NCBI GenBank assembly: GCA_028279645.1
Contig: JANQNJ010000002.1
Coordinates: forward strand, 1-58,905
Direction: 5' to 3'
Origin: Thermoplasmatota archaeon
GTDB taxonomy: Archaea; Thermoplasmatota; JAKEGO01; JANQNJ01
Length of the DNA: 58,905 nucleotides
Of the stretch, positions 18,710-43,750 are shown piece by piece. The translations under genes were made by a program, and so were the position numbers. How positions within the stretch are numbered: position 1 is the first letter of the stretch; the number at the start of each line of letters is the position of its first letter. The notes below the pieces were generated by a model that saw only the letters and a list, made by a program, of their open reading frames with translations, did no database searches and was not told where the DNA came from.

Positions 18710-21700
18710 TCTTGCCGTCACCCTGCTCCTGGATAACGAGGTTGATGGAGGTGACATTGGAATATTGATAGCCGTCGTAGCTGCGGAAACGGAGCCTGTA
18801 CCTGGCAGGGGCGAACCCTGTCATGTTCAGGGAATATGACCAGTTGAACGTGGTGTTGGGCTGGATCGAGTATTCCGAGAGGTTGACAGAGAACCATGAG
18901 CCGTTGCCGATGCGGACCTCGACCTTCGTGATGTTGGAGAGTGCGTCGTAGGCTGTGCCGTTGATCACGACGACGCCGGTGACGGTGGTGCCGTTGGGTG
19001 GATACGTGATCGTGATGGTCGGGACAGCGATATCCGTTTCGACCACGGGAGTGGTGTTTATGATCGTAAGGGTGAAGTCTATCCGCCTTGATACCGACGG
19101 GTCCTTTGCCGAGATGATCTTCAGCTTCAGCGTGTAGTTGCCGACATCGAGATCGTCGAGGTCATCTGCCTCGATGTAGAACGTGTAATTGAAGGAGTAG
19201 TAGGGTGCCAGCGATGTGACGTTCGGTAACGGTCCAAGGGTGAATCCGCTCGGTACCTTGGTCGCGTTGATGGAATATGAGTCGGTGTCAGTGCCTGTAT
19301 TCGTTATCTGGAACTCCAGATCGATCCTCACTTCGTCATCATATTGGTCCAGGGTGCCATTGGTCGTGACGCCGATCTCTTCGAGATCGTAATTGTCCTC
19401 GAACCAGCTGGTGATCGACACCGATGTCGTCGGTCCCGATCCGATGGATGAGGTCACGGTTATCGTCTCGTTGATCATCTCATCGTCGATCTCGGGGGCG
19501 TCCGAGGTGTTCACGAAGACCTTGTACGACAGACTGTACCACTCACCGGGCTCGAGCCCGAAGATGGTCACCTCGTCGGTGCCGTTGATCGTGCCGTACA
19601 TGTCATCGGAGGCCGTATCGATGCTGAGGGTAAGATCATCGTTATCGTTGCCCATGTTCGTTATCTTGATGGAATATTCGGACTCCTCTCCGACCTCAAG
19701 CTTCTGTGTAGCGGGTCCGATGATCTCTATCTTGGGAGCGCCCTTGGATGCGATGTCGATCTCGTAGTCGAAGTAGACCTTCTTTGCATCGTCCGGTGCA
19801 TCTGGTCCGCTGAGACCATGGACCGGATCTATGCTGACGTTGATCAGATATGGAGCGTCGCTCACCGGTAGATCTGTTAGGTCGTCCGTATCGTAGGTCA
19901 CGTTGATGATTAACAATATCTCGTCTCCGAGATCGTAAATGCTCAAGGTCTTGGACCCATCATTAAAAGCCGCATCGAGATCATTGGGACCGTTGTTGAT
20001 GGAGATGACGAAGTCCTCTGGATGGATCCCGACATTCGTGATCTTGAGGTGGCATTTGAGGGTATCACCTTTAACGGGATCGTGGAAAATGCGATCCTCG
20101 ACCGGGAGATCATACTCGTAGGACACGATCCGTTCGAGAGTGCCTGTGACAGAGACCTCATCACCGAATCCTGAGGATGCGGAACCTCGGACCTTGAAGA
20201 ATATCTTATTCCGACTGCTGACCTCAGGATCGAATTGGTTCTCTTCGAGGGCTTCTTCCCGGGTATACACAAGGTTCACGTAGATGGAGCGCGTCTCCTT
20301 GAAATCCAGTGATATCGTTCCGTCGATCTCGAATGCGAGGGCGGAATCGGAATAGAATGTCACCCAATCCATATTATTTGGGGTTATCTCTGGAATATCC
20401 AGATCAATAATATCGTCGGCGTTGCCGATGTTCGTCAGCTCGATCTCGAAGGTGTTGTTCACATCGGCGGAGACCGTCTTTGTTGCGTTGGAGGCATATA
20501 ATTCCACGTCGTAGAACGGTTCGATGGTCAGGGTCAACGTCCGCTGTTTCACGATCGAAGGATCTGCATCGGATTTCACCTTGATCGTAAAAGTGTAGTT
20601 GCCGGCCTTGATGTCATTGGCGTCCTTGTCCAATGCATAGGACACGTTGATGAACACCGTTCTAGAGTGGTCCTCTTCGATGTCGTTGATACTTTGTGTT
20701 GGAATGCTCTTGAACTTGTTCGTAGAGTAACCGGACGCTTCTATTCGATAATCATCGGTCCGGGTCCCGGTATTTACGATCTCGAAATCGAACCGGGTAC
20801 CGAACTCTCCAGCATCGGGATCGATGGTCATGTTCATGTCGCCATTGATAATATCGAACTCAAGGGAGTATTCCAGGATCTCAAGGGTGAAATTGATCGT
20901 GTGCCGTACCGAGGTGTTGCTGCTCGAGGTCACGAGCAGGATGATCGTATGCTCGCCCTCCTCGATGTCGGAGTCTGAGGAGGGGATCGCAACATCGAAA
21001 TTGTAGTCGGTGTTCTCATCAGCATCGACGTTATTTACAGATCCGAGGGAACCAACGTTGAACTTGCTAGGAACGAAGACCTTCTCGACGAGGTAATCGT
21101 CCTCCCTCGTGCCGAGATTGTGAATGCGGAAGGTGAACTCTGCTTCATCCTCACCGTCGGCCGCATCGACCGAAACGAAATCATCGATCCCGATAAGCTC
21201 GAACTCGAACAGTTCCTTCAATCTGAGGGTGACGTTCTCCTCCAGTTCCACATCGTCGTCGCCTTCAGAGACGCCTTTGATCATGAACTCGGTCTTCACT
21301 AGCTCATCCCATTCGCTGCCTCTATCCCTTTTCGGGACCGAGACGTTCACGAACACTAGATGCTCCGAGGTCGAGCTTTCGAGTTCGACGTCGATCTCCC
21401 GGCCTTCGTGATGGACTGTTGTATTGTCCACGTTCTGAAGATAGTACAGGTTCGCCCAATCACCGTACGGACCGGTGACCGACATCTGGATCTCGTCCCC
21501 GATGTTGCCGTCGTTTATTATCAGTACCTCGAACTGCACGCTCTCGTTGAACCCTGCCCAGCGAGTGGTGGTGTTGATCTCCAATGAGAAATCGTATCTC
21601 TCGTCAACATCCACCTTGAAGGTGAAGTTCTTGATCAGCTCGGTCTCGCCGATCGACTTGACCTCGATGATGATCTCGTGGAAACCGACCTTAAGGGCTT

Positions 21701-24700
21701 CAGCGTTCTTCGGGACCTCGATGAAGACGTTCACATACGCCTCCTCGCCGGGATCGCCGTCCTTGCTGGCGTTGGCCTGGGAGTTATGGGACACCTTCCA
21801 TTCGGCAGCTGGGGTCTGTTGGGTCGTGATCCTGTAATCGTCCTCGTCGTTGCCGTCGTTATTTATTCTTAAGGTAGCGTTGTAACTGTCGCCGGCATCG
21901 ACGGTCATGTACTCGTCCGCACTGTGCACTTCGAAGTCATAGAACGGTTCGAGATCTATGGTGCAGACAATGTAGTCGAATACCGTCGGCTTTTCCTTTG
22001 AGGTAACGGTGATATTGATGTCGTGTTCACCGGGGTCCACATCGTTATCGTCAGCCACGTCGATAACGACCTGGATCAAGACATGTGTGTTGTCAGCAAG
22101 ATCAAGAATCTCCTGGATCTTGACCGCCTGGGTCTCGTTCCAAACCGCAGTAAAGCCCCAGCCAGCCATGGTGTCGGATAGGTCGATGTCATAGTCGTCC
22201 ATGATCGAGCCGGAGTTCTTGACCTTGATCTCGAAGGCGACCTCGTCGCCGGGATCAGCCGATTTGTAGGTGTCGAAGGAGGAGAGCTCCACGTCCCAAT
22301 CGTGCTCGATCCGGACCGTTAGGAACTGCCTCTCGAAGAGGGTCTGACCGCCGGATGAGAAGGTGACGTTCATGATGAAAACGTAATCATCAGGATCCTC
22401 GTCCTGGGGCACCTCGATCTCGATGTCGATGGTCTCGTCATCGTTGTATCCGAACAGCTCCACCGAAGGTGGATCGACATCCTGCACCCAAGTGGCCCAT
22501 TCGCCCTCTACCTCGATCTGGAAGGTGTCGTCGCCGTTGCCCTTGTTGATAAGACGAGGTGTGAACGTCACAGTGTCGCCCTTGTCGACCTTCTTCAGGT
22601 CGGAGGTGACCTTGATCTCGACGTCGTGGTACTGGTCGACCTCGACCGTCAGGTTCCGAGTGGCTATCGGCGAGGTGGTTTCATCGTTCACCGAGTCGAT
22701 AATCACAGAGATATCGTAATCCTGGTTCTGCGCCTCCTCCATATCGAGGGGTATGTCCAGGTAGATCTGGACCGTAGCCTGCTCGTTGGGATCGATCGTG
22801 ACCATGGATTCGTTGGCATCGGTAAACATGAAGAACCAGCCGGTCGGGACGGTGTCTCCGTCCACGGATATGTTGAAGGTGTCCGTGTGAGTGCCGGTGT
22901 TCTGCAAGGTCATGTTGAAATAGGAGTAGCTACCGGGCAGGCCGGTCGAGGTCCGAAGACCGCCGACCTCGAGACCATACTGGACCTTGATCGTCGTGTT
23001 GAACTCGTGTGTTTCAACGACGCCTGTGTCTTCCTGACAGGTGACCCGGAGGCTGATCAGCACGTAGCCCGCGTCCCTGACCTCCGGCGGCGTGTTGTCC
23101 CAATCCTTCAGGGTCACGTTGAGATAAGCCTCGACGGTCTCGCCGGCGTCGATAATAGGTGCTGTTGTACCCTTCTCCGTTCCATGGGAGGCCCAGGTCT
23201 TGTATGTACCTGTTCTCTCAATATTGAATCCGCTCGAACCTGTTCCAGTGTTCTTCACGTTCAGGGCATAGTACAGGGTGTCTCCGGGCTCGCCCTCGAG
23301 CGCATCGGTCTGGCTCGAGAGAAGCAACGAATAGACAGGATTCACAACAAGGGTGAACACCTCCGTCACAACGATGTCATCAGACGGGGATACGGTCCCG
23401 TTTTCCGACGTCCCGTTGACGTAGATGATGTAGGTGCTGGGATCCAGTTTGTTCGCATCCGGAAGCTCAACGGTGATCGTTGTCGTGTTGATCTCGTACA
23501 CGGCAAGGTCGATCCATGTGTCTTCGATAGTAATGATCGCATCACTATCTCTAGGCCACATGCTGGCCTCCAGTTCGACCTCATCTGAGCCGGTACCCTT
23601 GTTGACGACCTGCAGAGTATAGTTGACCACCCAGTTCGGATCACCGTTCTTCTGGGGGTTCGGTGATGTCAGCTCGAAATCATATAGTTGCCTTACACTG
23701 ACCACGACCTGTTGGTTCTTATCGTACTCGCCGTGAGTGGTCGCGTTCAGCTTGACCTCGTATTCGCCCTTGGGAGCGTCGCCTGCGGGTGTGACGGTAA
23801 GTGTCACTGTCGTCTGATCGTTCGCGGTGATAACGGGACTCGCACTTGGGGTGAAAATATAATCCCAATCGGCCTGCTTGTTGTCGACATCGATGCTGAT
23901 GGTGTCCTCACCATTACCCTCGTTCTTGATGATGATGTCGAAGGTCACGGCTTCGGCTGGATAGGTCTCCTTCGTGTTGATGCCGGATACCTGTACCTCG
24001 ACGGCATACGCTTGCTGAACGCTAACCTGAAGGCTCTTCGAAACATCGGTCCCGTCGGGGAGTGTGGAGTTCGCATAGAGCCATACAGAATATTCCTGGT
24101 TCAATGCGTCGCTGCCGACGCGGAAGGAGATCCTTGCCGATGCTTGCTCTTCGTAACCTATGTCGATCTGGTGATCAGGATCGATTCCGAGATCCAACCA
24201 ACCAGCTGGAAGCCACATCTCCAGCTCCGCGGTATCGTTATCGTTCCCGATGTTCTCGATCCATACGTCGGCGTTGACCACACCGGTCCCATTCCCTTCA
24301 GCCGAATATGGATAACGACTCGAGTTGATCTCATCTATGGATATCGCTACTATCCTGAACACACTGTACTTCTCCACCTGCACCTGATATGTGAGCTCGT
24401 TGGAATAATTGAGGTCCTCCATCAGGGCGCGGACCCTGAATTGATAGGTGCCTGCCTCGAACTTGTGTTCAGCGGTGATGGTAAGCTGAACGTTCTCGAC
24501 CTCCCCTCCATCGAGGTCCGGTTGATTGTTATCGAGCGCGCAGATCCAACCGGTACTGGAAACGTCGATCACTTCGAGATCGAACTCGGTGTTCCTGTTA
24601 CCAGCGTTCTCCACGCTGAAATTAAACATGGCCGATCTGTCCTGGTATCGGGTCATGACCTCATCTGAGGAGGAACCAAGATTGGTGAGCTTGCAGTCGA

Positions 24701-26132
24701 ACTTCTCTTCGACGTATACAGTGAGTGTGAGATTTACCATTATTGAGGTATCGCCTTGGCTCTGAGCATAGATCTTGACATTGTGACCGCCATAAGGAGC
24801 GTCCTCGCCGATCGTTATCCTTGCGATCACGGATTCGTTGTCGAACCGGTCAACATCCATCGTGGTCTGGGGTATGAACTGGATCAACCAACCCGAAGGT
24901 TCGGATGAGCTGAGGTAGAACCGGTCCTCGGCGTTGCCGTCGTTGTGTAGATATATCTCAACGTCGACAGAATCCTCTGGAAGAGTGTATTCGCCGGGGG
25001 ATTCGCCTTCGAGGTGCGCTTCATAGACCTGTAGGACGGTTGTTGTGACATTGATATCGATCGCAGGTGCTTGGGCACTCCCCTCATCCGGGGTTGCGGT
25101 TATGGTGATGGTTTTTGTCCTGTCCGGACCTTCTGCAGGGGCATTTTCGTCAGGTGTGATCTCGACTCTGAACGTTGCAGTCTCGTTGGTATCAAGGATG
25201 GCATATGCTGGATTCATGCCGATGGTCCAATCGTCAAGGGTTCCTGAATAACTGAGATCGTAGCGTACTTCGCTGTTTCCTCTATTGGTCAAGGTGAAGT
25301 TGTATTGTGCTTCCTGTCCGGGGAATGTGGAAAGGGAGGTGTCCTCGCATTCGAATTGATAGGAATAATATGGTAGTACCGTGAAGTTGAAGGGCACAGA
25401 AGATGTCGTTTCGCCTTCATCATCGGTTGCTGATACTGTTATGTAGTATACTTTTGCGGTCGCCATTCCAATATCAACGGTGAGATTGAAGTATTCTGTA
25501 GCACCCGAGAGTACATAGAGTGACGAGGGACCGATAACAGATATGTCGCCAGGAGAATGTGTAATACCGATATCGAACGTTTGATTATAATTCCAATGGT
25601 TCTCCAGTTTGAAGGGGATGTTAACAGTTGTCTCCACAGAACCGTTCAGGCGAGGATTGCCAACCATGGAAAGTAAATGCCATCCGCCTCGTCCGACTGT
25701 CGTTTCAATGTAGATATTGGCAGGTTCGGTTCCATTAGTATTCGATATGGACACGTAGGTCTCTTCCGATTCCTGATATTCGACGTCTCCGGGAGCGGTC
25801 ACCCTAACGTTGGTATACTTCCAGCCCGAGGCATCGATGTGCCAGGAGTTGGAACCCACGAATTCTGTAGTCCAACCCGAGCTAGGTGTGCTCAAGGTGA
25901 GCGTCACATCGGTCTCATACGGCGAAGAGCCATCCTTTGTTGCTTTGATACCGATCTGATATGTGACAGAATCTCCTGGATCTACTTCCTTCCCAGCTGG
26001 TGTGTTGGTATCATCAATATCTACATCTCCCAATGCAGCCGTTGTTACTATCATGAAAAAGAAGACTACCATCGCTGCAAGTAACAGCCGCTCGACCATG
26101 CTTCGAGACTGACGACTAAGCGAATCGTTCAT
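18591..26132 (-). CDS. giant (2513 aa) repeat-rich cell-surface protein / adhesin with PGF-CTERM archaeosortase sorting signal
   Basis: Uninterrupted 7.5-kb ORF with an N-terminal hydrophobic signal (LLLAAMVVFFFMIVTTAALG). The body is many ~100-130-aa beta-rich modules with the recurring pattern Y[DE]h.h.......V..G....F.h.h.N.G...D.[FY].[IL] (CARDB/NEW3/COG1470-like S-layer modules) and many N-x-S/T sequons. The C-terminus GIPGFGPPTIFAGIAAGALVLCFRRRRD is a PGF-CTERM signal. Confidence 0.9.
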   Translation of the reverse strand: MNDSLSRQSRSMVERLLLAAMVVFFFMIVTTAALGDVDIDDTNTPAGKEVDPGDSVTYQIGIKATKDGSSPYETDVTLTLSTPSSGWTTEFVGSNSWHIDASGWKYTNVRVTAPGDVEYQESEETYVSISNTNGTEPANIYIETTVGRGGWHLLSMVGNPRLNGSVETTVNIPFKLENHWNYNQTFDIGITHSPGDISVIGPSSLYVLSGATEYFNLTVDIGMATAKVYYITVSATDDEGETTSSVPFNFTVLPYYSYQFECEDTSLSTFPGQEAQYNFTLTNRGNSEVRYDLSYSGTLDDWTIGMNPAYAILDTNETATFRVEITPDENAPAEGPDRTKTITITATPDEGSAQAPAIDINVTTTVLQVYEAHLEGESPGEYTLPEDSVDVEIYLHNDGNAEDRFYLSSSEPSGWLIQFIPQTTMDVDRFDNESVIARITIGEDAPYGGHNVKIYAQSQGDTSIMVNLTLTVYVEEKFDCKLTNLGSSSDEVMTRYQDRSAMFNFSVENAGNRNTEFDLEVIDVSSTGWICALDNNQPDLDGGEVENVQLTITAEHKFEAGTYQFRVRALMEDLNYSNELTYQVQVEKYSVFRIVAISIDEINSSRYPYSAEGNGTGVVNADVWIENIGNDNDTAELEMWLPAGWLDLGIDPDHQIDIGYEEQASARISFRVGSDALNQEYSVWLYANSTLPDGTDVSKSLQVSVQQAYAVEVQVSGINTKETYPAEAVTFDIIIKNEGNGEDTISIDVDNKQADWDYIFTPSASPVITANDQTTVTLTVTPAGDAPKGEYEVKLNATTHGEYDKNQQVVVSVRQLYDFELTSPNPQKNGDPNWVVNYTLQVVNKGTGSDEVELEASMWPRDSDAIITIEDTWIDLAVYEINTTTITVELPDANKLDPSTYIIYVNGTSENGTVSPSDDIVVTEVFTLVVNPVYSLLLSSQTDALEGEPGDTLYYALNVKNTGTGSSGFNIERTGTYKTWASHGTEKGTTAPIIDAGETVEAYLNVTLKDWDNTPPEVRDAGYVLISLRVTCQEDTGVVETHEFNTTIKVQYGLEVGGLRTSTGLPGSYSYFNMTLQNTGTHTDTFNISVDGDTVPTGWFFMFTDANESMVTIDPNEQATVQIYLDIPLDMEEAQNQDYDISVIIDSVNDETTSPIATRNLTVEVDQYHDVEIKVTSDLKKVDKGDTVTFTPRLINKGNGDDTFQIEVEGEWATWVQDVDPPSVELFGYNDDETIDIEIEVPQDEDPDDYVFIMNVTFSSGGQTLFERQFLTVRIEHDWDVELSSFDTYKSADPGDEVAFEIKVKNSGSIMDDYDIDLSDTMAGWGFTAVWNETQAVKIQEILDLADNTHVLIQVVIDVADDNDVDPGEHDINITVTSKEKPTVFDYIVCTIDLEPFYDFEVHSADEYMTVDAGDSYNATLRINNDGNDEDDYRITTQQTPAAEWKVSHNSQANASKDGDPGEEAYVNVFIEVPKNAEALKVGFHEIIIEVKSIGETELIKNFTFKVDVDERYDFSLEINTTTRWAGFNESVQFEVLIINDGNIGDEIQMSVTGPYGDWANLYYLQNVDNTTVHHEGREIDVELESSTSEHLVFVNVSVPKRDRGSEWDELVKTEFMIKGVSEGDDDVELEENVTLRLKELFEFELIGIDDFVSVDAADGEDEAEFTFRIHNLGTREDDYLVEKVFVPSKFNVGSLGSVNNVDADENTDYNFDVAIPSSDSDIEEGEHTIILLVTSSSNTSVRHTINFTLEILEYSLEFDIINGDMNMTIDPDAGEFGTRFDFEIVNTGTRTDDYRIEASGYSTNKFKSIPTQSINDIEEDHSRTVFINVSYALDKDANDIKAGNYTFTIKVKSDADPSIVKQRTLTLTIEPFYDVELYASNATKTVSADVNNTFEIELTNIGNADDIIDLDIPEITPNNMDWVTFYSDSALAFEIDGTISLDFKETRSIYVNLVYTREEALEENQFDPEVSSRNKIFFKVRGSASSGFGDEVSVTGTLERIVSYEYDLPVEDRIFHDPVKGDTLKCHLKITNVGIHPEDFVISINNGPNDLDAAFNDGSKTLSIYDLGDEILLIINVTYDTDDLTDLPVSDAPYLINVSIDPVHGLSGPDAPDDAKKVYFDYEIDIASKGAPKIEIIGPATQKLEVGEESEYSIKITNMGNDNDDLTLSIDTASDDMYGTINGTDEVTIFGLEPGEWYSLSYKVFVNTSDAPEIDDEMINETITVTSSIGSGPTTSVSITSWFEDNYDLEEIGVTTNGTLDQYDDEVRIDLEFQITNTGTDTDSYSINATKVPSGFTLGPLPNVTSLAPYYSFNYTFYIEADDLDDLDVGNYTLKLKIISAKDPSVSRRIDFTLTIINTTPVVETDIAVPTITITYPPNGTTVTGVVVINGTAYDALSNITKVEVRIGNGSWFSVNLSEYSIQPNTTFNWSYSLNMTGFAPARYRLRFRSYDGYQYSNVTSINLVIQEQGDGKNDGGKKDDDSDGIPGFGPPTIFAGIAAGALVLCFRRRRD

Positions 26133-32473: not shown

Positions 32474-32594
32474 TGGTGCAGGGGGAGGGATTCGAACCCA
32501 CGAACCACTTCTGGACAGGATGGCTCATCAGGACCCCGCGACCGGAAACCCGATCTTAAGTCCTGCGCCGTTGGCCAAGCTTGGCTACCCCTGC
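32474..32594 (-). tRNA. tRNA-Leu (anticodon UAA), class II with long variable arm, genomically encoded CCA, 33-nt intron at canonical 37/38 position
   Basis: Minus strand: GCAGGGG-TA-GCCAAGCTTGGCCAACGGC-G-CAGGA-CTTAAG[intron]A-TCCTG-TCCAGAAGTGGTTC-GTGGG-TTCGAAT-CCCTC-CCCCTGC-A-CCA. The 7-bp acceptor and 5-bp anticodon stems pair perfectly. The T stem has one U-U mismatch. The variable arm CCA/GAAG/TGG is like other archaeal tRNA-Leu. Confidence 0.9.
32522..32554 (-). other. tRNA intron with bulge-helix-bulge (hBHBh') splicing motif
   Basis: Intron ATCGGGTTTCCGGTCGCGGGGTCCTGATGAGCC. The central 4-bp helix pairs C32-U33-U34-A35 with intron UGAG. The 3-nt bulges A36-G37|A and C-C|A38 each carry a splice site after their second nucleotide. 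Inner 5-bp helix UCGGG/CCUGA. Confidence 0.85.
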
Positions 32595-35194: not shown

Positions 35195-35573
35195 TGCGCC
35201 ATACTCCTCTCTTGCTTCGCCCTCAAAAATCCTCTGGTATATATAACTAGCTGTGAAAGTGACGGAGATCGCCCTTATTAAGTTGATAACTGAACACCGA
35301 AGGTCATTGTGTGGGGGTGAAGGTGGGGCCTGACATCCGTTCCTATCCTTTATTCAATTAATACCAAAGATAGGTCCATTCTGAATTTACTTTATTAATT
35401 AATCAGAGTATAGATGGTTCACCTGTAATTCTTTGGTTATACCCTGGTGCTAACCTGGCAGTCTATATATAGTCTGCATGGCATCTTTGCATTGCGAAAG
35501 GAGCAGGAACTATCCCGAGAGGGCTAGAACTGTTCACTTTCGGCGAGCAATCGCGAATCAGGAGGAAAAGAAA

Positions 35574-36332
35574 ATGTGGCAGAAGTTAGCGGCAATGGCC
35601 CTCGTGGTCACTATGCTGACAACGCTGGCATACAGCACATCCGCGGAAATGGCTGCACCCACGGTGGATTTCAGTCAGACACCGACGGAACAAGCGGACT
35701 GGGTTTTCATCGCAGCAGCGCTGCACGACCCTGTGAACTATATGGACGACCCTGATTATCAGGAGGCCATGGCCCTGCACGACTACTTCTTGGGTCTCGG
35801 TTTCGATGAGGAGCATATCATCCTTCTCGTCGACTACGACACCATGAACCCCATAGTCGACGGCGCGGCCACCAAGGGCAACATCTTTGCGGCCCTTGAT
35901 TTCCTGGCTACCGTGTCCACCTCGGACAGTTTCCTATTCATTGGGATCCTGAACCTTGGACATGAGAGCGGGGACGGCTTCTGGGTCCAGCTGAGCGACG
36001 AACCTCTGTACGACTGCGATCTGGATACGAAGCTGGACGCACTGACGTACGACGAGATGGTCGTTACGCTGGTCTTCAGGTACTCTGGCGGGTTCCTGCC
36101 AGAGATCGGCCAGAGCGGCAGGCTCTGCATTGCGAGCTGTAAGAACAACATCGACGTGGATACCGACTTCAGGCTGTCCAACGCCCTTACCAACCCCAAC
36201 GCGGATTGGAACGGCAACGGCAGGATCTCCTTCGAGGAGGCCTTTTGGGACCAGTGGTCCTGGGCGAACTGGGAGTACAACCCCACCGCCAAGGACAAGA
36301 TCTGGGGCTCGGTCTACGCACCAGGCGCTTGA
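35574..36332 (+). CDS. secreted legumain/caspase-fold (peptidase C13-like, clan CD) paralog 1, type A; nucleophile Cys replaced by Tyr; C-terminal EF-hand loop
   Basis: AGGAGG Shine-Dalgarno 8 nt before ATG 35574. Signal peptide MWQKLAAMALVVTMLTTLAYSTSAE. Motif order follows legumain: DWVFIAAAL / DPDYQEAMALHDYFLGLGFDEEHIILLVDYD / NPIVDG / ATKGNIFAALDFL / SFLFIGILNLGHE (His-Gly) / VVTLVFRYSGGF (Cys position) / LCIASC. Also DWNGNGRISFEE and a C-terminus ending VYAPGA*. Confidence 0.8.
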   Translation: MWQKLAAMALVVTMLTTLAYSTSAEMAAPTVDFSQTPTEQADWVFIAAALHDPVNYMDDPDYQEAMALHDYFLGLGFDEEHIILLVDYDTMNPIVDGAATKGNIFAALDFLATVSTSDSFLFIGILNLGHESGDGFWVQLSDEPLYDCDLDTKLDALTYDEMVVTLVFRYSGGFLPEIGQSGRLCIASCKNNIDVDTDFRLSNALTNPNADWNGNGRISFEEAFWDQWSWANWEYNPTAKDKIWGSVYAPGA

Positions 36333-36557
36333 TCGCGTCAATAATGGAGAAAAAGGGAAAAATGGCTTGAAATGAGAAAGAACATTCGCCTTTCATGGAT
36401 TCTGGCCGATAATTGGTGGCGCGGAGACGGCGGCGCGGGGCGGCGGTTCGGAAGGTCACCGGTGGAAAAGGGGTCGTGGGTAAGGACCAACGGCGGCCGA
36501 GGATAATGATTGCGAGAAAGCACCAAGGGGTGCGAAAAGCCTGATTCGCTAAAGATT

Positions 36558-36575
36558 GGGGGGCGCAAGCCCCCC
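36558..36575 (+). other. 7-bp G/C hairpin with GCAA (GNRA) tetraloop in spacer 1
   Basis: ggggggc-gcaa-gcccccc, about 226 nt downstream of the paralog-1 stop. Function unknown. Confidence 0.5.
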
Positions 36576-36737
36576 GGTCTTTACCCCCCCGGCGGATCAG
36601 GCGCGGAATGCCTAGGGGTATCACAGATAGCACACTTGCAGTTAAAGCTCTAAAAATAAAAAAAGGCGATAAGGTTGCCTCCTTCTATCGTCTACGCCTC
36701 TGAGAGAGTTTTACCCCAATACAGCGAGCACATCTTC

Positions 36738-36803
36738 GCCGGCCCGGTCTGCCTCCCGGGCCGGCTTTAGCCCCCCTCGGACCCTGCCTAGGTCCGGGGG
36801 GCT
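36738..36803 (+). other. two adjacent strong GC hairpins in spacer 1
   Basis: gccggcccgg-tctgcctc-ccgggccggc is a perfect 10-bp stem (36738-36765). It is followed by agcccccc..ggacc-ctgccta-ggtcc-ggggggct (36769-36803), then tatatataa. Confidence 0.5.
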
Positions 36804-36928
36804 GTGCCTTCTATATATAATTAAAGTAACAAATAGATACGTCTGTCATCGGCGGGATCCCGGGCGTCGATCGAGTGGTTTTTTGACCGCAGGTAGAGCC
36901 GAATGTACCGGCCGAGGGTGGTTTTCAT

Positions 36929-36982
36929 TGGTTATTTGGGTTATAACCATCGATCTATCGTTATAACCAAATTCGGGTTATA
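36929..36982. promoter_or_regulatory. cluster of GGTTATAACC palindromes / GGTTAT half-sites upstream of paralog 2
   Basis: cattGGTTATttgGGTTATAACCatcgatctatcGTTATAACCaaattcgGGTTATAtac. Perfect 10-bp palindrome at 36939-36948, about 140-190 nt upstream of ATG 37119. Confidence 0.4.
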
Positions 36983-37118
36983 TACTTCGAACGCGTCGTT
37001 CTTTTTCCTACGAGGTAGAAAAGCTTCGTAGGGACCTTGAGATATCAAGGGCTCGCCGCCGGATTAGGCGCCGGCGGTCAATAGGTGACGAAAATAGATA
37101 GAAGGAGGCAAGAACAAG

Positions 37119-37895
37119 ATGTGGAAAAAGGCTGTAAGTATGGGCTTTGTCGCTATGCTGATGATGACGCTTTTCACGGGTGTCACAGGCGACATGGCCG
37201 CGCCGACCGTAGATTATAGCGGTTACAACACCGCACAGGCCGATTGGGTCCTGATCGCCGCTGCACTGCACGACGAGGCAGGGTTCTTCAACGATCCGGA
37301 CTACCAGGAGGCAATTGCTCTGCACGACTATTTTGCGAGCATAGGCTTTGATGAGGAACATATCATCCTGCTCGTGGACTTCGATCTGGCAAACCCGATC
37401 GTTGACGGACCGGCGACCAAGGGAGATATCTATCACGCCCTTGACTTCCTCGCCACCGTGACGACCCCCGACAGCTTCGTGTTCGTCGGGATCCTCGATC
37501 TCGGCCATGAGAACATGCAGGGATACTATGTCGAGCTGAACGACGAGCCGCTCTACGATCACGAGCTGGACGCCAAGCTCGATATGCTTCAGTATGAGGA
37601 TCTCGTTGTGGACCTGGTCTTCAGGCACGCCGCCGGCTTCTTCGACTACATCGCGGAGGATGGCAGGCTCTGCTTCGGATCGACCAAGGACAACAAGGAC
37701 CTGGACGTACCGTTCCATATCTCCATTGGTCTTCAGGACATGGAGGCCGACCAGGAGTTCGGCAACGGCAACGGCAGGATCGCCTTCGAGGAGGCTTACA
37801 AGTACGAGAAGGATCGCTTGAGAGACATCGACGATTCCTTCAAGCCCAAGAAGGACGACGAGATATCCGGAAAGGTTTACGCCCCCGGAGTATAA
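37119..37895 (+). CDS. secreted legumain/caspase-fold paralog 2, type B; Cys position is His
   Basis: GAAGGAGG Shine-Dalgarno. Signal peptide MWKKAVSMGFVAMLMMTLFTGVTGD. Same motif order as paralog 1 with LDLGHE retained and LVFRHAAGFF at the Cys position. FGNGNGRIAFEE loop; ends VYAPGV*. Confidence 0.8.
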   Translation: MWKKAVSMGFVAMLMMTLFTGVTGDMAAPTVDYSGYNTAQADWVLIAAALHDEAGFFNDPDYQEAIALHDYFASIGFDEEHIILLVDFDLANPIVDGPATKGDIYHALDFLATVTTPDSFVFVGILDLGHENMQGYYVELNDEPLYDHELDAKLDMLQYEDLVVDLVFRHAAGFFDYIAEDGRLCFGSTKDNKDLDVPFHISIGLQDMEADQEFGNGNGRIAFEEAYKYEKDRLRDIDDSFKPKKDDEISGKVYAPGV

Positions 37896-38104
37896 ATCTA
37901 AAGGGACTACAACCGTAGGTCGACGGTTGAAAGGTCTTTGACTGCCATGCGCCCCCCGCTCGCAGGCAACAGTGGGTCTCCCACCCTGCTGTTGAACTGT
38001 ATGTTCGAGCCTTAGACATGTTCTGCGGGCGATCAGGGGTTTAAGTCGTGGCATTAAGGCCTTTGACCGCATCTTGCGAAGTCTCTTTTTCGTGAGGGGG
38101 GCCT

Positions 38105-38150
38105 TGCGGGCGCTTCGGCGCCTGCGGGTCCTTTTTCTTTTTTTCTTTTT
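38105..38150 (+). terminator. hairpin with UUCG tetraloop followed by long T-rich run
   Basis: tgcgggcgc-ttcg-gcgcctgcg (9 bp including 2 G-U), then ggtcc-TTTTT-c-TTTTTTT-c-TTTTT. About 210 nt downstream of the paralog-2 stop. Confidence 0.45.
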
Positions 38151-38506
38151 CATTTATCATCCCTAGCTTTGAGCTTTTTACGTCGGGTTCTTTCGTTATT
38201 GTTCTGATACCGGAACGATATCGATGGTTTTCGCTGGAGAAGCCCTTGGGATCTTTTCACCGGAATTAGGCCTTTGGGCGGCTCCTGATTTAACTTATCA
38301 CGACAAGATATTGGCTCTCAATATTCGTGATCTCAGGGGAAAGATCGGCCGAGATCCCGATGTGTCCGGGTGTGCGCCGACCCTGGTGTGAGAGTGGTTA
38401 CATTGGTGCACCAATGTAGGCGATCTCGTGAAAATGCTACTTTCGTGAAATGCCCCTTTAATTGCCATTTTCAGCATCTACAGCCGAAAAACGCCTGATG
38501 GTTGTC

Positions 38507-38553
38507 TTGGTTATAACCATCGATTTTCAAAACACCCCCAATGTTATAACCAA
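38507..38553. promoter_or_regulatory. GGTTATAACC palindrome pair upstream of paralog 3
   Basis: cttGGTTATAACCatcgattttcaaaacacccccaatGTTATAACCaaa. Same TTGGTTATAACCATCGAT core as upstream of paralog 2, about 140-180 nt before ATG 38691. Confidence 0.4.
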
Positions 38554-38690
38554 AGAGGGTTCAAATACTTTCGAGCCGAGTATCAATGTGAGTCTCGGGT
38601 TGAGATTCCGTGACAATGGTGGAAGATAAGGGGCCTGCACCGACGGGGTGCAGCATCAGAGGCGTAGAATCATAGAAGGAGGCACCAAGA

Positions 38691-39467
38691 ATGTGGAAGA
38701 AAATAGCTGTCATGACCTTTTCGGTGATGATGGTACTGACGCTCTTCTCGGGCGTGACCGCCGAGATAGCAGCGCCGACGGTAGACTATAGTGTGTATAA
38801 CACGGCAGAGGCCGATTGGGTCCTGATCGCCGCTGCCCTGCATGACGAGGCAGGGTTCTTCGATGATCCGGACTACCAGGAGGCAATTGCCCTGCACGAC
38901 TACTTTGTTAGTATTGGGATAGATGAAGAACATATCATAACTCTGATCGATTTCGATCTGGCCAACCCGATCGTGGACGGACCTGCGACGAAGGGAGACA
39001 TATATGCCGCTCTCGACTTCCTCGCCACCGTGACGACCCCGAACAGCTTCGTGTTCGTCGGGATCCTCGATCTTGGCCACGAGAACGAGCAGGGATACTA
39101 TGTCGAGCTGAACGACGAGCCGCTCTACGATCACGAGCTGGACGCCAAGCTTGACATGCTACAGTACGAGGATCTCGTCGTGGACCTTGTCTTCAGGCAC
39201 GCAGCCGGCTTCTTCGACTACATATCGGAGGATGGCAGGCTCTGCTTCGGATCGACCAAGGACAACAAGGACCTGGACGTACCGTTCCATATCTCCATAG
39301 GTCTTCAGGACATGGAGGCCGACCAGGAGTTCGGCAACGGCAACGGCAGGATCGCCTTCGAAGAGGCTTACAAGTACGAGAAGGATCGCCTGAGAGACAT
39401 CGACGATTCCTTCAAGCCCAAGAAGGACGACGAGATATCCGGTAAGGTGTACGCCCCCGGAGTCTGA
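38691..39467 (+). CDS. secreted legumain/caspase-fold paralog 3, type B'
   Basis: GAAGGAGG Shine-Dalgarno. Signal peptide MWKKIAVMTFSVMMVLTLFSGVTAE. Same length as paralog 2, with a near-identical 3' two-thirds. Confidence 0.8.
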   Translation: MWKKIAVMTFSVMMVLTLFSGVTAEIAAPTVDYSVYNTAEADWVLIAAALHDEAGFFDDPDYQEAIALHDYFVSIGIDEEHIITLIDFDLANPIVDGPATKGDIYAALDFLATVTTPNSFVFVGILDLGHENEQGYYVELNDEPLYDHELDAKLDMLQYEDLVVDLVFRHAAGFFDYISEDGRLCFGSTKDNKDLDVPFHISIGLQDMEADQEFGNGNGRIAFEEAYKYEKDRLRDIDDSFKPKKDDEISGKVYAPGV

Positions 39468-39736
39468 ACGATCAAATACGGCCGGCCATAAGGAGTAAAT
39501 GGCAGAAAGGGGAGTGCTCGCCCCTGTTGTCACCGAGGCCCTTATGGCCGTCCGGCGAGGTGCAATCGCATCGCATACATCCCCGTTGATCCTCATCAGG
39601 ATCAATCCGATGGGCTCTTTCCCCCCGTCGCCCATCGATCCGGAAAGCATGCCGCTTTGAATAAGGGATCCCCAAGGCGGGGATGTGTGTACAGTTCCGC
39701 ATTCAGTTAGGACTGCCTCCTGCTGACTTGTTGGAG

Positions 39737-39788
39737 CCGGCTGAGCGGGTGGGTAAAAAAGGCGCCCGCTCAGCCCGGGGATTTTTTT
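39737..39788 (+). terminator. long GC hairpin followed by T7
   Basis: ccggctgagcggg-(15 nt)-cccgctcagcccgg, then gg-a-TTTTTTT. About 270 nt downstream of the paralog-3 stop. Confidence 0.45.
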
Positions 39789-39854
39789 ATTTAGACGCCG
39801 AGGAGAGCATGCTCGCCGCTCCTCGATCACATAACGCTCAATAGATGGGGTCTT

Positions 39855-39914
39855 GAGGGGCCGCGCGGTAGGGGAAAGACGCGCGGTCCCCTCTCTTTTT
39901 GTTTCTTTGTTTTG
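39855..39914 (+). terminator. 13-bp GC hairpin (one bulge) followed by T-rich run
   Basis: gaggggccgcgcg-gtaggggaaaga-cgcgcggtcccctc, then tcTTTTTgTTTcTTTgTTTTg. Confidence 0.45.
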
Positions 39915-40157
39915 TACGTTGAGATAACTTCCAGCGATCATCCCTTGACGTGGAGGTCCAATTTCTCGATCCCGTTCGGGGGTGCGGGGAGGGGATGTGA
40001 ACATCCCATCTGGAAGTCTTCGCCGAACCATTATGTCGTCGATAGCACATCTCTGCATGGCGTTCCGGCAGTGCGTACTTAAAGCTTATATATCGTCAGT
40101 CGGACTATCTATATGCTTTGGGCTCTGCCCGGAGTTCCATCACGGAGGCTCGAACAT

Positions 40158-40916
40158 ATGCTTAAGGAGGCGACCAGTGTCGTAGTAGCAGCGGCACTCC
40201 TGTTAACCATGCTTTCAGGAGTTTCCGCCGAGATGGCAGCACCAACGGTAGATTTTTCCGAAATGCCTACCGGCCAGGGGGACTGGGTTTTCATCGCAGC
40301 AGCGCTGCATGATCCCCTGGACTATCTGAACGATCCTGACTACCAGGAGGCCTTGGCCCTTCACGACTATTTTGCGGGACTCGGATTCGACGAGGAGCAC
40401 ATCATCCTGCTCGTTGACTTCGATACGACGAACCCCGTTATAGATGGAGAGGTCACCAAGGGCAACATAATGGCAGCGCTCGACTTCCTCGCGGCGGTGT
40501 CGACGGAGGACAGCTTCGTCTTCTGCGGCATCCTGGATCTCGGCCACGAGGGCGGAGAGGGCTATTACGTCGAACTGAACGACGAGCCGTTGTACGATCA
40601 CGAGCTCGATGCGAAGCTCGACGCCATAGACTGCGACGACCTGGTGATCAACCTCGTGTTCAGGTATTCCGGCGGATTCCTGCCGGAGATCGGTCAGTGG
40701 GGCCGGCTCTGCATCGCGTCGTGCAAGAACAACATCGACGTTGACACGGACTTCCGCCTGTCAGTAGCCCTTACTGACCCCAATGCAGACTGGAACGGCA
40801 ACGGCAGGATCTCCTTCGAGGAGGCGTTCTGGGACCAGTGGTCCTGGGCCAACTGGGAGTACAACCCGACCTGCAAGGACAGGATCTGGGGCTCGGTATA
40901 CGCACCGGGAGCCTGA
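40158..40916 (+). CDS. secreted legumain/caspase-fold paralog 4, type A'
   Basis: GGAGG lies 8 nt before ATG 40158. Signal peptide MLKEATSVVVAAALLLTMLSGVSAE. LDLGHE retained; LVFRYSGGF at the Cys position; DWNGNGRISFEE; ends VYAPGA*. The C-terminal ~90 aa are almost identical to paralog 1. Confidence 0.8.
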   Translation: MLKEATSVVVAAALLLTMLSGVSAEMAAPTVDFSEMPTGQGDWVFIAAALHDPLDYLNDPDYQEALALHDYFAGLGFDEEHIILLVDFDTTNPVIDGEVTKGNIMAALDFLAAVSTEDSFVFCGILDLGHEGGEGYYVELNDEPLYDHELDAKLDAIDCDDLVINLVFRYSGGFLPEIGQWGRLCIASCKNNIDVDTDFRLSVALTDPNADWNGNGRISFEEAFWDQWSWANWEYNPTCKDRIWGSVYAPGA

Positions 40917-41059: not shown

Positions 41060-43750
41060 CTACTTCTTCTTTCCGCCCTTCTCGGCCTCGTTGAGCTCCT
41101 TGAGCTCCTTCTCCACACGGTCTATCAGGTTGCCCTTGCCGTGCTCCTTGTATATCGTCATGGCCTCTTCGAGATACTTCCGGGCGTTCTTGTTGTCGCC
41201 CTTCTTCTTGTACATCTGGGAGTAGAAATAGTACCGTTCGGCGAGGTTGAACGGCATGTCGATCTCCTGGACGATCTTGATCGACTCGTCGAAGTGCTTC
41301 ATCGCCTCGTCCCAGTTGCCCAGCTCCGAGTAGACCTCGCCGTAGATCTGGTGGACGTAGGACTCGCCGATCCGGTCCTCCATGGAGCGCAGGATGGAAT
41401 ATGACTCTGAAAGATACATCAGCGCCTCTTCGGTCTTGTTCTGCTTGCTGAGGACGCTGCTGACGTTGAGCAGGGCGTAGGCCAGGCGCTTCGTGTTGGC
41501 AGTGTTCCGGGCCAGCTCTATGCACCGCTCCCAGCTGTTCCTGGCGTCGTCGAGGTTGTTCAGGATATAATGGGCCACTCCGAGCTCGTTGTAGGCCCTT
41601 CCAACGCGGTAGTTGTCACCCTGGTCCTCGAAGTACTTGATGGAGCGCTCGCAGACCTCCACGGCCTCGGTGGAGCGGTTCATCTCGTTGAGGACCATGG
41701 CCTCGTCGATGAGGGCCTCGTTGGATACCTCCTCATCCCCGGCGGCCTCCGCGCTCTCCTGGGCCCGGACCATGTACTCAAGGGCTCGCTTGTGGTCGCC
41801 GCGCCGCAGCTGGATCTTTCCCAGGCCGCGCATGGTGTCCGCCTCTGCAGATCGGTCTCCAAGCTTGGCGGCCTCGTCCAGGGCCATCTGGAAGTAGTCC
41901 ACGGCCCGATCGAGGGTCCCCTTCTCCATCTCCAGGTGGCCGATCTGCCTGAAGGCGTGGGACCGGACCTTGTAGTTGGTGCTGGAGCAGGACTTGAGCG
42001 CGGTGTGGTACTTGTCGAGCGCCGCCTCCCATTCGCCCTCGGCGAAGAAGAGGTCGCCCGATATGAGCATCATTCCGTAATGGTAATCGGTGGGGATATT
42101 GTCCTCGAGCTTCTGGATGACGACGTGGAGCTCATCGAGGAGTCCCCGGTTGATCATCATGCGGCCGTTGTCCACCAGGATCTCGGCGGCGGTGTCGAAG
42201 TCCTCCGCCTCCAGGAAGTGGAGCGTGGCGGAAAGGAGCGAGCTGAGGTCGCCCTTGCCCTGATAGTACGTGGCGGCGAGCGTGTGGTTCGACTGCCGTT
42301 CCTCCGGTGTGAGCCGGCTGTAGGCGAGCTCACGCACGATGTCGTGGAGGTATATCCCCTCGTAGGGGATCTCCTGGAGAAGATCGTGCTCGATGAGGGC
42401 GTCGAACGCCTCGTAGGGGAGCCCGGCCACCGACAGGGCCTCGTGCTCTATGGGATAACGGTAAACGGAAGCGAGACCCAGGAGCTGCTGCTCCTCGGGC
42501 TTGAGCTTCGAGAAGATCTCGGAGTTCATGAAACGGTGGATATCGGACGGACGACGCGCGTCGCCCGGCGTCCTGATCAGCTCCAGCGCCAGCGGATGGC
42601 CGCCGGTCATCTGGATGATCCTGTCGACGTCGTCCTCCGGGATACCCCTGGCCATCAACAGTTCCTTCGAGCTGATCTCGTCGAGACCCTTCAGGCGGAT
42701 CTCGCCGATGGTCCCGCGGACGCGCACCTCCCTCCGGTCGTAGAAGTTCGGCTGGATCCTGGATGTGACCAGGATCTTGACCTCCTTGCCCCGGAGGACC
42801 TGGTGGAAGAGCTTGAACATCGTCTCCAGGCGCTCGGGGTTCTTGTGGTAGTCGTCGTAGACCAGGATCGCCTGCATCCCTTCGAACGCCTTGTCCAGGA
42901 TGTTGTAGAGCTCGCTGTAGTTGATCGTCTTGTTCGTCTTGAGATAGGACTGCAGGTCCCTCTCCGATAGATGCGAGAGGAACTCGCCCAGCGGCGTGAT
43001 GGCCGCTCTGACGGTGTCCCACTCGTGGAACTGGTACCAGAAGAGGTTCGCCTTGTCGGCGAACTCGTTGATGATGTGATAGACCAGGGTGGACTTGCCG
43101 ATACCGGGGATACCGGTCACCACGCCGATGCGGATGTCCGACTCGAGCCACTCCATGATCTGTCCGACCTCGTCGTCCCTTCCGAAGAACTGCTTCAGCG
43201 GGGGCTGCCCCTCTGTGTACTTGATGTACTTCGGCCGGTCCTCTCCCGCGTCCTTGCCGGTCTCGTAATCGACGACGAGGGAGTCGAAGTCGAGCTTCGT
43301 GGTGTTGAGGTCGTCAAGGGTCCTGACGAGCTTCAGAAGCGGGAACTCCGGCGGGAGCTTAGAGAGGACCTCCTTCAGGGTGTACCTGTTGACCTTGCCC
43401 TTCTCGGTGACGGAGAGCTCCGCCTCCTCGATGTTGTCCAGGATCTCCGTCCCCTTCTCCATGCCAATGGCTGTGAGGAAGTAGACGGCTCTGCGCCGGG
43501 ACTCGCCGGTCACGGTGCCCGAAAAACGATCGACGAGGCCCTCGGTCTCGAGGTCCTTCATGGCCCTTGGAACGTGGTTCCAGCGGATGCCGACGGCGTC
43601 GGCGATGCCGGGCTGGGATATGCCGATGGGAGTCGATTTGTAAAGTTCGTCTCCGGGATTTGCGTCAGGGGCGAACCTGTCTTTAGGGAAGGTTAGAAGA
43701 TGGAGTAGTATCTTTTCCTTTACGGTGATGGGGTTCTTTCGCCCTGGCAT
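41060..43750 (-). CDS. STAND ATPase: N-terminal winged helix + NB-ARC/AP-ATPase module + C-terminal TPR array (896 aa)
   Basis: wHTH (GISQPGIADAVGIRWNHVPRAMKDLETEGLV), Walker A GVVTGIPGIGKSTLV, Walker B AILVYDDYH, VLVTSR-like KILVTSR, and TGGHPLALELI (the GxPLAL signature of NB-ARC). About 450 aa of TPR-like repeats follow (...AFRQIGHLEMEKGTLDRAVDYFQMAL..., ...YFYSQMYKKKGDNKNARKYLEEAM). Confidence 0.85.
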   Translation of the reverse strand: MPGRKNPITVKEKILLHLLTFPKDRFAPDANPGDELYKSTPIGISQPGIADAVGIRWNHVPRAMKDLETEGLVDRFSGTVTGESRRRAVYFLTAIGMEKGTEILDNIEEAELSVTEKGKVNRYTLKEVLSKLPPEFPLLKLVRTLDDLNTTKLDFDSLVVDYETGKDAGEDRPKYIKYTEGQPPLKQFFGRDDEVGQIMEWLESDIRIGVVTGIPGIGKSTLVYHIINEFADKANLFWYQFHEWDTVRAAITPLGEFLSHLSERDLQSYLKTNKTINYSELYNILDKAFEGMQAILVYDDYHKNPERLETMFKLFHQVLRGKEVKILVTSRIQPNFYDRREVRVRGTIGEIRLKGLDEISSKELLMARGIPEDDVDRIIQMTGGHPLALELIRTPGDARRPSDIHRFMNSEIFSKLKPEEQQLLGLASVYRYPIEHEALSVAGLPYEAFDALIEHDLLQEIPYEGIYLHDIVRELAYSRLTPEERQSNHTLAATYYQGKGDLSSLLSATLHFLEAEDFDTAAEILVDNGRMMINRGLLDELHVVIQKLEDNIPTDYHYGMMLISGDLFFAEGEWEAALDKYHTALKSCSSTNYKVRSHAFRQIGHLEMEKGTLDRAVDYFQMALDEAAKLGDRSAEADTMRGLGKIQLRRGDHKRALEYMVRAQESAEAAGDEEVSNEALIDEAMVLNEMNRSTEAVEVCERSIKYFEDQGDNYRVGRAYNELGVAHYILNNLDDARNSWERCIELARNTANTKRLAYALLNVSSVLSKQNKTEEALMYLSESYSILRSMEDRIGESYVHQIYGEVYSELGNWDEAMKHFDESIKIVQEIDMPFNLAERYYFYSQMYKKKGDNKNARKYLEEAMTIYKEHGKGNLIDRVEKELKELNEAEKGGKKK

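Follow-up and report, generated by a model that had tools for sequence, protein, structure and literature searches.

Legumain-family proteins are known for their activity as cysteine peptidases, ligases or transamidases, and pseudo-enzymes are common. Dead homologs within clan CD of prokaryotes have been surveyed only for family C14 in the literature searched, and no mention of a prokaryotic, bacterial or archaeal legumain was found there. Bacterial pseudo-orthocaspases of family C14 carry Tyr-Ser in place of the catalytic His-Cys (Klemencic et al. 2019, PMC6426788), and pseudo-variants are apparently absent from Archaea according to the same C14 survey. Canonical genes of peptidase family C13, to which legumain belongs, were noted in metagenome-assembled genomes (MAGs) of Thermoprofundales (PMC6461988). 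The locus described here is a tandem array of four genes, designated A1, B1, B2 and A2, on contig JANQNJ010000002.1 of the Thermoplasmatota archaeon assembly GCA_028279645.1; the 58,905 nucleotides that were analysed are referred to as the window. The array appears to represent an undescribed pseudo-legumain subfamily, in which the legumain fold is retained and both residues of the catalytic dyad are replaced.

The four genes are co-directional open reading frames (ORFs) on the forward strand (Table 1), with coordinates and lengths (252, 258, 258 and 252 aa) exactly as given in an earlier reading of the same DNA made without database searches (the sequence-only reading). A GGAGG-type ribosome-binding site stands before every start codon. 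The A-B-B'-A' pattern proposed in that reading is backed by pairwise protein identities of 75% for A1/A2, 91% for B1/B2 and 57-61% between the A and B types; the paralogs are alignable end to end with a mean column identity of 78%. The VYAPGA/V C-terminus described there as invariant is present in all four proteins, and only Tyr248 and Pro250 remain invariant once two outside relatives, P0003 and P0005, are included. The spacers between the paralogs measure 690-795 bp (36333-37118, 37896-38690 and 39468-40157), which is long by archaeal standards. Apart from the promoter blocks of B1 and B2 they have no repeats in common, and neither an Rfam match above threshold nor a convincing ORF lies in them.

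Family membership was examined with a six-sequence profile of the clade formed by A1, B1, B2, A2, P0003 and P0005. An exhaustive HMMER search with this profile returned 522 proteins at E<=1e-3. Pfam PF01650 (Peptidase_C13) was found in 34 of 50 scanned sequences (A1 and 49 of the 522 hits), and no competing protease family was present among the 50 except for one C14 match. None of the four array proteins matches PF01650 by its own sequence, even at E<=10; single-protein scans gave no significant Pfam or NCBIfam model, a single-sequence search against PDB sequences gave no match, and likeness to any other enzyme family was absent from the Pfam, NCBIfam and PDB sequence searches. The nearest wider relatives are about 230-250 aa long and 24-31% identical to A1. 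Three bridge proteins without the catalytic Cys (P0008, P0009 and P0012), reached by the clade profile at E 1e-22 to 1e-27, pass the PF01650 gathering score by themselves, and the sequence homology of the four genes to C13 is, as far as these searches indicate, only transitive through them. An hhalign comparison of the two family alignments was circular, A1 being contained in both, and its E-value was set aside.

An AlphaFold2 model of mature A1, built from a 53-sequence alignment, reached a predicted local distance difference test score (pLDDT) of 96.1 and a predicted template modelling score (pTM) of 0.93. It superseded a six-sequence model with a pLDDT of 52 and weak fold matches (E about 4e-3). 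Nearly all of the top 50 Foldseek matches in the PDB are C13 enzymes (legumain, plant AEP/PAL and PIGK, the latter as 8imy_K), the top matches having E 2.5e-8 to 2.5e-6 at probability 1.00, the best E-value (2.5e-8) being that of human legumain 7fqj_C, and the template modelling (TM) score reaching 0.69 (4awb_A, TMq). The array proteins have, on this evidence, the alpha/beta fold of legumain (peptidase C13, clan CD). Model, Foldseek and profile searches together bear out the legumain/caspase fold proposed in the sequence-only reading, which had named an unrelated fold as the outcome that would speak against it; C13 structures came out on top and no such outcome was seen.

Four mapping routes (profiles, column counts, BLASTP and model strands) agree on the loss of both dyad residues. 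In the profile alignment, legumain FIYFTDHG and metacaspase-4 HYSGHG stand opposite the family motif I-L-D-h-G, and legumain IEACESGS and metacaspase-4 SDSCHSGG opposite l-s-g-n-y-S-G-G. In a hidden Markov model (HMM) alignment of 154 relatives, 82 domains have the His and the Cys precisely at these positions. BLASTP of A1 against the canonical relatives P0017 (E 9e-13) and P0018 (E 9e-18) sets LNLGHE opposite LNDHGD and LKNHGS, and LVFRYSGGF opposite VSCCYSGGF and VSCCHSGGF. The dyad positions lie directly after two strands in all clan CD enzymes, and in the AlphaFold2 model the His and Cys positions directly follow the corresponding strands beta3 (F120-L126) and beta4 (E161-V167).

The canonical D-H-G motif reads D/N-L-G-H in the array. 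The catalytic His column is occupied by Leu128 in the four array proteins and by Trp in P0003 and P0005, while the Cys column holds Arg169, invariant in all six. His130, which is Tyr in P0005, sits just after the conserved Gly129, and Tyr/His170 is the counterpart of legumain Glu190. The six clade members have no invariant Cys, so that the alternative nucleophile allowed for in the sequence-only reading is not present. That reading had the His-Gly dyad kept and the Cys replaced by Tyr or His. Its caveat that an alignment by eye could be shifted applied here: the loss of the Cys stands, the replacement was read one residue too far and is the invariant Arg, and the supposed His-Gly is L-G-H, with the His following the Gly. 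The loss of the catalytic His also weakens the suggestion of an altered chemistry using the old His. On these alignments the array proteins are best described as double-dead pseudo-legumains (His to Leu, Cys to Arg) which, with the dyad replaced, would therefore be unable to act as cysteine peptidases. The marks of a clan CD pseudo-peptidase, namely a retained fold, a lost dyad and purifying selection, were all found. The Asn/Asp-specific S1 pocket of legumain consists of Arg44, His45, Glu187 and Asp231; compared by eye, the loop after beta1 is presumably four residues longer in the array, with D-P-D-Y opposite legumain Y-R-H.

Substitution rates were estimated by the Nei-Gojobori method for all measurable pairs. 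The ratio of nonsynonymous to synonymous rates (dN/dS) is 0.12-0.19 in every pair, including A1/A2 (dS 1.4) and B1/B2 (dS 0.47, dN/dS 0.12). The four genes are under purifying selection and are, because of these ratios, functional genes, neither chance ORFs nor decaying copies. A rough neighbour-joining tree places (A1,A2) and (B1,B2) as sister pairs, and the four together as sister to P0003 and P0005. From this topology the array arose within its lineage by nested tandem duplications, in the order A/B split, A1/A2, B1/B2. It is not a mirror-image structure, since all four genes share one direction. The DNA identity of B1 and B2 is 62-75% in the signal-peptide region (first 120 nt) and 92-100% in the 3' half, a gradient that suggests gene conversion or, alternatively, rapid divergence of the signal peptide.

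The N-termini consist of a K/R-containing start and a hydrophobic stretch of 15-20 residues (mean Kyte-Doolittle 2.1-2.5) ending in small residues (TSA, VSA, VTG or VTA) ahead of a conserved MAAPTVD. They fit an export signal, as the sequence-only reading had it in proposing Sec-type signal peptides, although an uncleaved membrane anchor may be the alternative to a cleaved signal. No other protein of the window is as acidic as the mature parts, whose net charge is -12 to -15 per 100 residues; only a 2513-aa CARDB/Ig surface protein comes close (-11.8), and cytoplasmic enzymes lie at about -1 to -8. Canonical relatives are often fused to PKD, Big/Ig-like and secretion-tail domains (Pfam scan). 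An extracellular location of the array proteins is likely from these features. The 2513-aa protein is encoded by a giant ORF at 18591-26132 on the reverse strand, in a stretch of lower G+C content (0.50-0.55); it is very acidic, contains CARDB, NPCBM_assoc, FixG_C-like and Ig-like domains, and is probably a surface protein.

The 12-residue loop of type A (DWNGNGRISFEE) fits the EF-hand pattern, D-x-(D/N/S)-x-(D/N/S)-G-x-(I/L/V)-x-x-x-E. The type B loop (DQEFGNGNGRIAFEE) has a 3-residue insertion after the Asp. Of the EF-hand-type loops reported for all four proteins, that of type A matches the pattern as stated, and that of type B is to be read with the insertion. In the A1 model, helices flank the loop (mature residues 176-180 and 195-205). 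Pfam EF-hand_1 gave 12.6-12.9 bits, below the cut-off of 25.4 (E 0.08), and EF-hand matches of the profile in the PDB have E 8e-4 to 0.3. The loop is present in all groups of relatives, including those that keep His and Cys, and is therefore ancestral to the prokaryotic C13 branch, not special to the array.

Close relatives are extremely rare. Only P0003 and P0005 were found outside the window among 5.8 billion clustered proteins; a scan of 185,579 GTDB species-representative genomes with the clade alignment gave none, and a metagenome scan gave nothing beyond the P0005 contig. P0003 lies on a 9-kb Logan contig (L001), and P0005 on a JGI and an ENA contig, both about 1.1-1.3 kb long. The six clade proteins, which come from at least three organisms, share 91 invariant residues. 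The called start of P0003 (286 aa; L001 6864-6960) is probably too far upstream: its hydrophobic signal begins at Met33 (L001 6960), and a TATA-like box and a palindrome stand just before the called start codon. An unannotated 252-aa gene in L001 (464-1222) is not a paralog.

The clade nests within a larger set of about 50 C13-like proteins that are small (at most 290 aa), exported and without the catalytic Cys. In this group the Cys column contains N, R, P, D, S, I and others, the catalytic His is retained in half, and 46 of 50 have an N-terminal hydrophobic stretch. Wherever a member has an organism name, the source is a Thermoplasmatota archaeon MAG, and every source-named one is annotated as 'hypothetical protein'. 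Together with the missing Pfam and NCBIfam matches this agrees with the statement in the sequence-only reading that no described archaeal family was known to it. Another coherent clade of C13-like proteins, about 320-350 aa long, keeps the catalytic His and has Ser in the Cys column (P0040, P0058, P0080, P0083, P0092, P0094, P0113, P0118, P0132, P0144 and P0166); it may represent an exchange of the nucleophile from Cys to Ser among legumain homologs of prokaryotes.

Compared with legumain/AEP and PIGK (MEROPS C13, PF01650), the array proteins share the alpha/beta fold (TM 0.6-0.69) and the order of conserved blocks, keep the Asp before the His column, the Gly after it and S-G-G after the Cys column, and are probably likewise exported. 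They differ in that legumain His148 is Leu (Trp in P0003 and P0005) and Cys189 is Arg, in lacking the C-terminal LSAM/prodomain, in their much smaller size (about 227 aa mature), in the EF-hand-like loop that stands where legumain has its DSDVEDLTKETL segment, and in falling below the PF01650 threshold by their own sequences. The Cys-less proteins of Thermoplasmatota (e.g. P0038, P0042, P0162 and P0164; GCA_016928095.1, GCA_049472275.1, GCA_964445525.1) served as a comparison group. They resemble the array proteins in size (225-250 aa), N-terminal signal, loop, Cys loss and a neighbouring winged helix-turn-helix (wHTH)/TPR gene, but are only 21-31% identical to them, keep the His in half of the cases and have N, P, D or S, not Arg, in the Cys column. 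Their genes are single-copy, in an operon with the TPR gene and usually followed by a small gene for a 4-Cys protein that has no counterpart in the window. In three distant loci of Thermoplasmatota (L005 10738-11061, L009 10717-11058 and L011 10675-11040) this conserved small gene (107-121 aa) comes directly after the gene for the Cys-less C13-like protein; its product has two CxxC-type pairs and a C-terminal HNIRKxNWISxLTFE. The pseudo-orthocaspases are likewise prokaryotic clan CD proteins that kept the fold, lost the dyad and are conserved under selection, but they belong to the C14 p20 domain, are cytoplasmic, occur in photosynthetic bacteria and carry other substitutions.

The gene downstream of A2 is convergent with it and encodes an 896-aa protein with an N-terminal winged helix, a STAND ATPase (ATPase_2, AAA_16, NB-ARC) and MalT-like TPRs. 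It shares the ATPase_2/AAA_16/NB-ARC and TPR_MalT architecture of MalT-type STAND regulators, with the difference that its DNA-binding domain is an N-terminal winged helix and not a C-terminal LuxR-type domain. Its relatives are annotated by JGI as MalT/MarR-type regulators. The gene convergently downstream of P0003 in L001 is its ortholog, with 54% identity over the 403 available residues; TruD of the two contigs is only 38% identical. In L005, L007, L009 and L011 a wHTH+TPR gene (split in two in L007) lies 18-44 nt upstream of the C13-like gene on the same strand. In the window, three of these four distant proteins match solely the end of the 896-aa gene that codes for the TPRs (E 9e-6, 2e-4 and 0.24), and the L005 protein has no match. 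A wHTH/TPR gene thus adjoins the C13-like gene in all six loci examined. The more distant STAND/TPR paralogs P0170, P0169 and P0172 (34-36% identity) have no C13-like neighbours, and the link therefore does not extend to the whole regulator family.

A palindrome, GGTTATAACC, occurs five times in the window with at most one mismatch, against 0.67 expected. Every copy belongs to the promoter of A1, B1 or B2 and precedes a TATA-like box by about 8-20 nt. Its sole occurrence in the 9-kb L001 is in the P0003 promoter, at the equivalent place. The 896-aa regulator may therefore drive the array through these sites, as far as gene order and motif indicate. The P0005 promoter (L002 21-40) has a different inverted repeat, GGTGAAT-N6-ATTCACC, at the same position. 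A perfect 20-nt palindrome, TACATTGGTGCACCAATGTA, is located at 38399-38418 in the spacer upstream of B2 and has no counterpart before the other genes. A bacterial promoter/terminator scan of the DNA gave nothing beyond chance.

In the reading that we regard as somewhat probable, the genes are lineage-specific tandem duplicates that encode exported, acidic, double-dead legumain folds, non-catalytic binders under the control of the adjacent regulator. Each gene would give an exported, very acidic legumain-fold protein of about 25 kDa, acting outside the cell as a non-catalytic binding protein (pseudopeptidase). Binding would use the remodelled former substrate cleft with its conserved His51-Asp52, Gly129-His/Tyr130 and Arg169-Tyr/His170, and the Ca2+-type helix-loop-helix loop, which would derive from active C13 ancestors in prokaryotes, could serve for stabilisation. 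Transcription may be switched by the wHTH-STAND-TPR regulator on the GGTTATAACC palindromes just upstream of the TATA boxes. Several points weigh against this proposal. The binding role is drawn from sequence and model, the cleft-lining residues from alignment and secondary structure, not from three-dimensional superposition, and the assignment of a Ca2+ loop from a pattern and sub-threshold scores, with an insertion in type B. The regulator link consists of adjacency in six loci and a motif, TPR regulators are abundant in these genomes, and STAND/TPR paralogs at 34-36% identity have unrelated neighbours; the A2 promoter contains no GGTTATAACC palindrome within one mismatch. As an exported protein and a cytoplasmic regulator cannot meet, the link could only be transcriptional.

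Other functions were weighed against non-catalytic binding. The conserved residues might form a rebuilt catalytic or metal centre, composed of His51-Asp52, Arg169, His/Tyr130 and Tyr/His170, so that the proteins are still enzymes with an extracellular substrate. His51, Asp52 and Arg169 are invariant in six of six clade members and are situated where the active site is formed in clan CD, at the C-terminal ends of beta1 and beta4; the array genes are under strong purifying selection, and Arg is fixed at the Cys column of the clade whereas residues at this position vary in the wider group (N, P, D, S, I and others). An active centre is nevertheless unlikely: no complete candidate triad is invariant, His130 being Tyr in P0005 and residue 170 Tyr or His, Ser171-Gly172 is Ala-Ala in type B, His51-Asp52 is not conserved in the wider Cys-less family, and no likeness to other enzyme families was detected in Pfam, NCBIfam or PDB sequences. 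In a broader version these residues constitute a new ligand-binding or catalytic centre, and the secreted proteins together with the regulator make up an archaeal module that senses or processes an extracellular molecule; we consider this quite unlikely, and such a module would, if it exists, be a hitherto undescribed one.

Clan CD pseudo-enzymes often act as regulators of their active paralogs. The array proteins could serve as decoys for, or modulators of, active clan CD peptidases secreted by the same cell or by neighbours, pairing with such a peptidase or competing for its substrates in the manner of cFLIP and caspase-8. The canonical His/Cys relatives have the same domain and the same loop, and MAGs of Thermoplasmatota (Thermoprofundales) are reported to carry genes for active C13, C11 and C25 peptidases (PMC6461988). 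The 59-kb window and all fetched loci lack an active C13-like gene, however, the closest canonical relatives are just about 27-32% identical, and Arg44 and His45 of the legumain S1 pocket are apparently not conserved (alignment judged by eye); we consider a decoy role as improbable as a rebuilt enzyme. A structural or adhesive surface protein, with the fold as scaffold and the Ca2+-type loop as a dockerin-like attachment, is very unlikely. Its extreme acidity would match that of the giant CARDB/Ig surface protein of the window, the loop resembles the dockerin/EF-hand D-x-N-x-N-G-x-I, one relative matches Pfam Dockerin_1, and fusions of relatives to PKD, Big and secretion-tail domains are frequent; but there is a single loop and not a duplicated dockerin repeat, no cohesin-like partner was identified, and the C-terminal VYAPGA/V is not followed by a hydrophobic tail, with neither a membrane anchor nor a sorting signal there. 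Functionless, decaying copies have a negligible chance and are the only rival already contradicted by the data. The loss of both catalytic residues and the long spacers (690-795 bp) without detectable content would fit decay, yet all four reading frames are intact and have ribosome-binding sites, dN/dS is 0.12-0.19 even where dS is at least 1.4, the 91 invariant residues are shared across at least three organisms, and the model folds confidently.

A dead-legumain branch is defined here by about 50 cluster representatives, the named members of which come from uncultured Thermoplasmatota; the window holds its most derived clade, amplified to four copies. Metabolic reconstructions of sediment archaea should not count the array genes among the extracellular peptidases. 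A clean sequence set, a confident model, and a candidate regulator with its candidate operator are supplied for a putatively non-cutting archaeal legumain fold. The coordinates of the features are shown in Table 1.

Table 1. Genes and promoter elements of the array and its neighbour in the window
Feature	Position	Strand	Description
Gene A1	35574..36332	+	252 aa; predicted export signal at residues 1-25, then legumain-fold domain, EF-hand-like loop at 211-222; from ORF, alignments, AlphaFold2 model, Foldseek, site mapping
Gene B1	37119..37895	+	258 aa; type-B paralog; L/R substitutions as in A1; loop with 3-residue insertion (DQEFGNGNGRIAFEE)
Gene B2	38691..39467	+	258 aa; type-B paralog, 91% identical to B1
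Gene A2	40158..40916	+	252 aa; type-A paralog, 75% identical to A1
STAND/TPR regulator candidate	41060..43750	-	896 aa; downstream of A2, convergent; from Pfam
GGTTATACCC, one-mismatch copy of GGTTATAACC	35435..35444		A1 promoter, upstream of TATA-like box
TATA-like box CTATATATAG	35463-35472		A1 promoter
Two GGTTATAACC-type palindromes	36939-36948, 36959-36968		B1 promoter, just upstream of TATA-like box
TATA-like box TTATATAC	36978-36985		B1 promoter
Two GGTTATAACC-type palindromes	38509-38518, 38542-38551		B2 promoter, just upstream of TATA-like box
TATA-like box TCAAATA	38561-38567		B2 promoter
TATA-like box TTATATAT	40086..40093	+	A2 promoter

A few observations concern other genes. Beside the STAND/TPR paralog P0170, contig L037 (903-5882) carries five consecutive genes for coiled-coil proteins, an unrelated tandem family; four of the five end in a DnaJ-type CxxCxGxG...CxxCxGxG zinc finger. 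A Thermoplasmatota-like host is suggested by the presumed intron of a tRNA gene, by archaeal Pfam domains and by the organism names of relatives, and the polyprenyl synthase gave solely bacterial matches at about 30% identity. In the window, Rfam identified a 118-nt tRNA gene at 32477-32594 on the reverse strand (40.6 bits) that was missed by ARAGORN, the length of which suggests an intron and fits an archaeal host.

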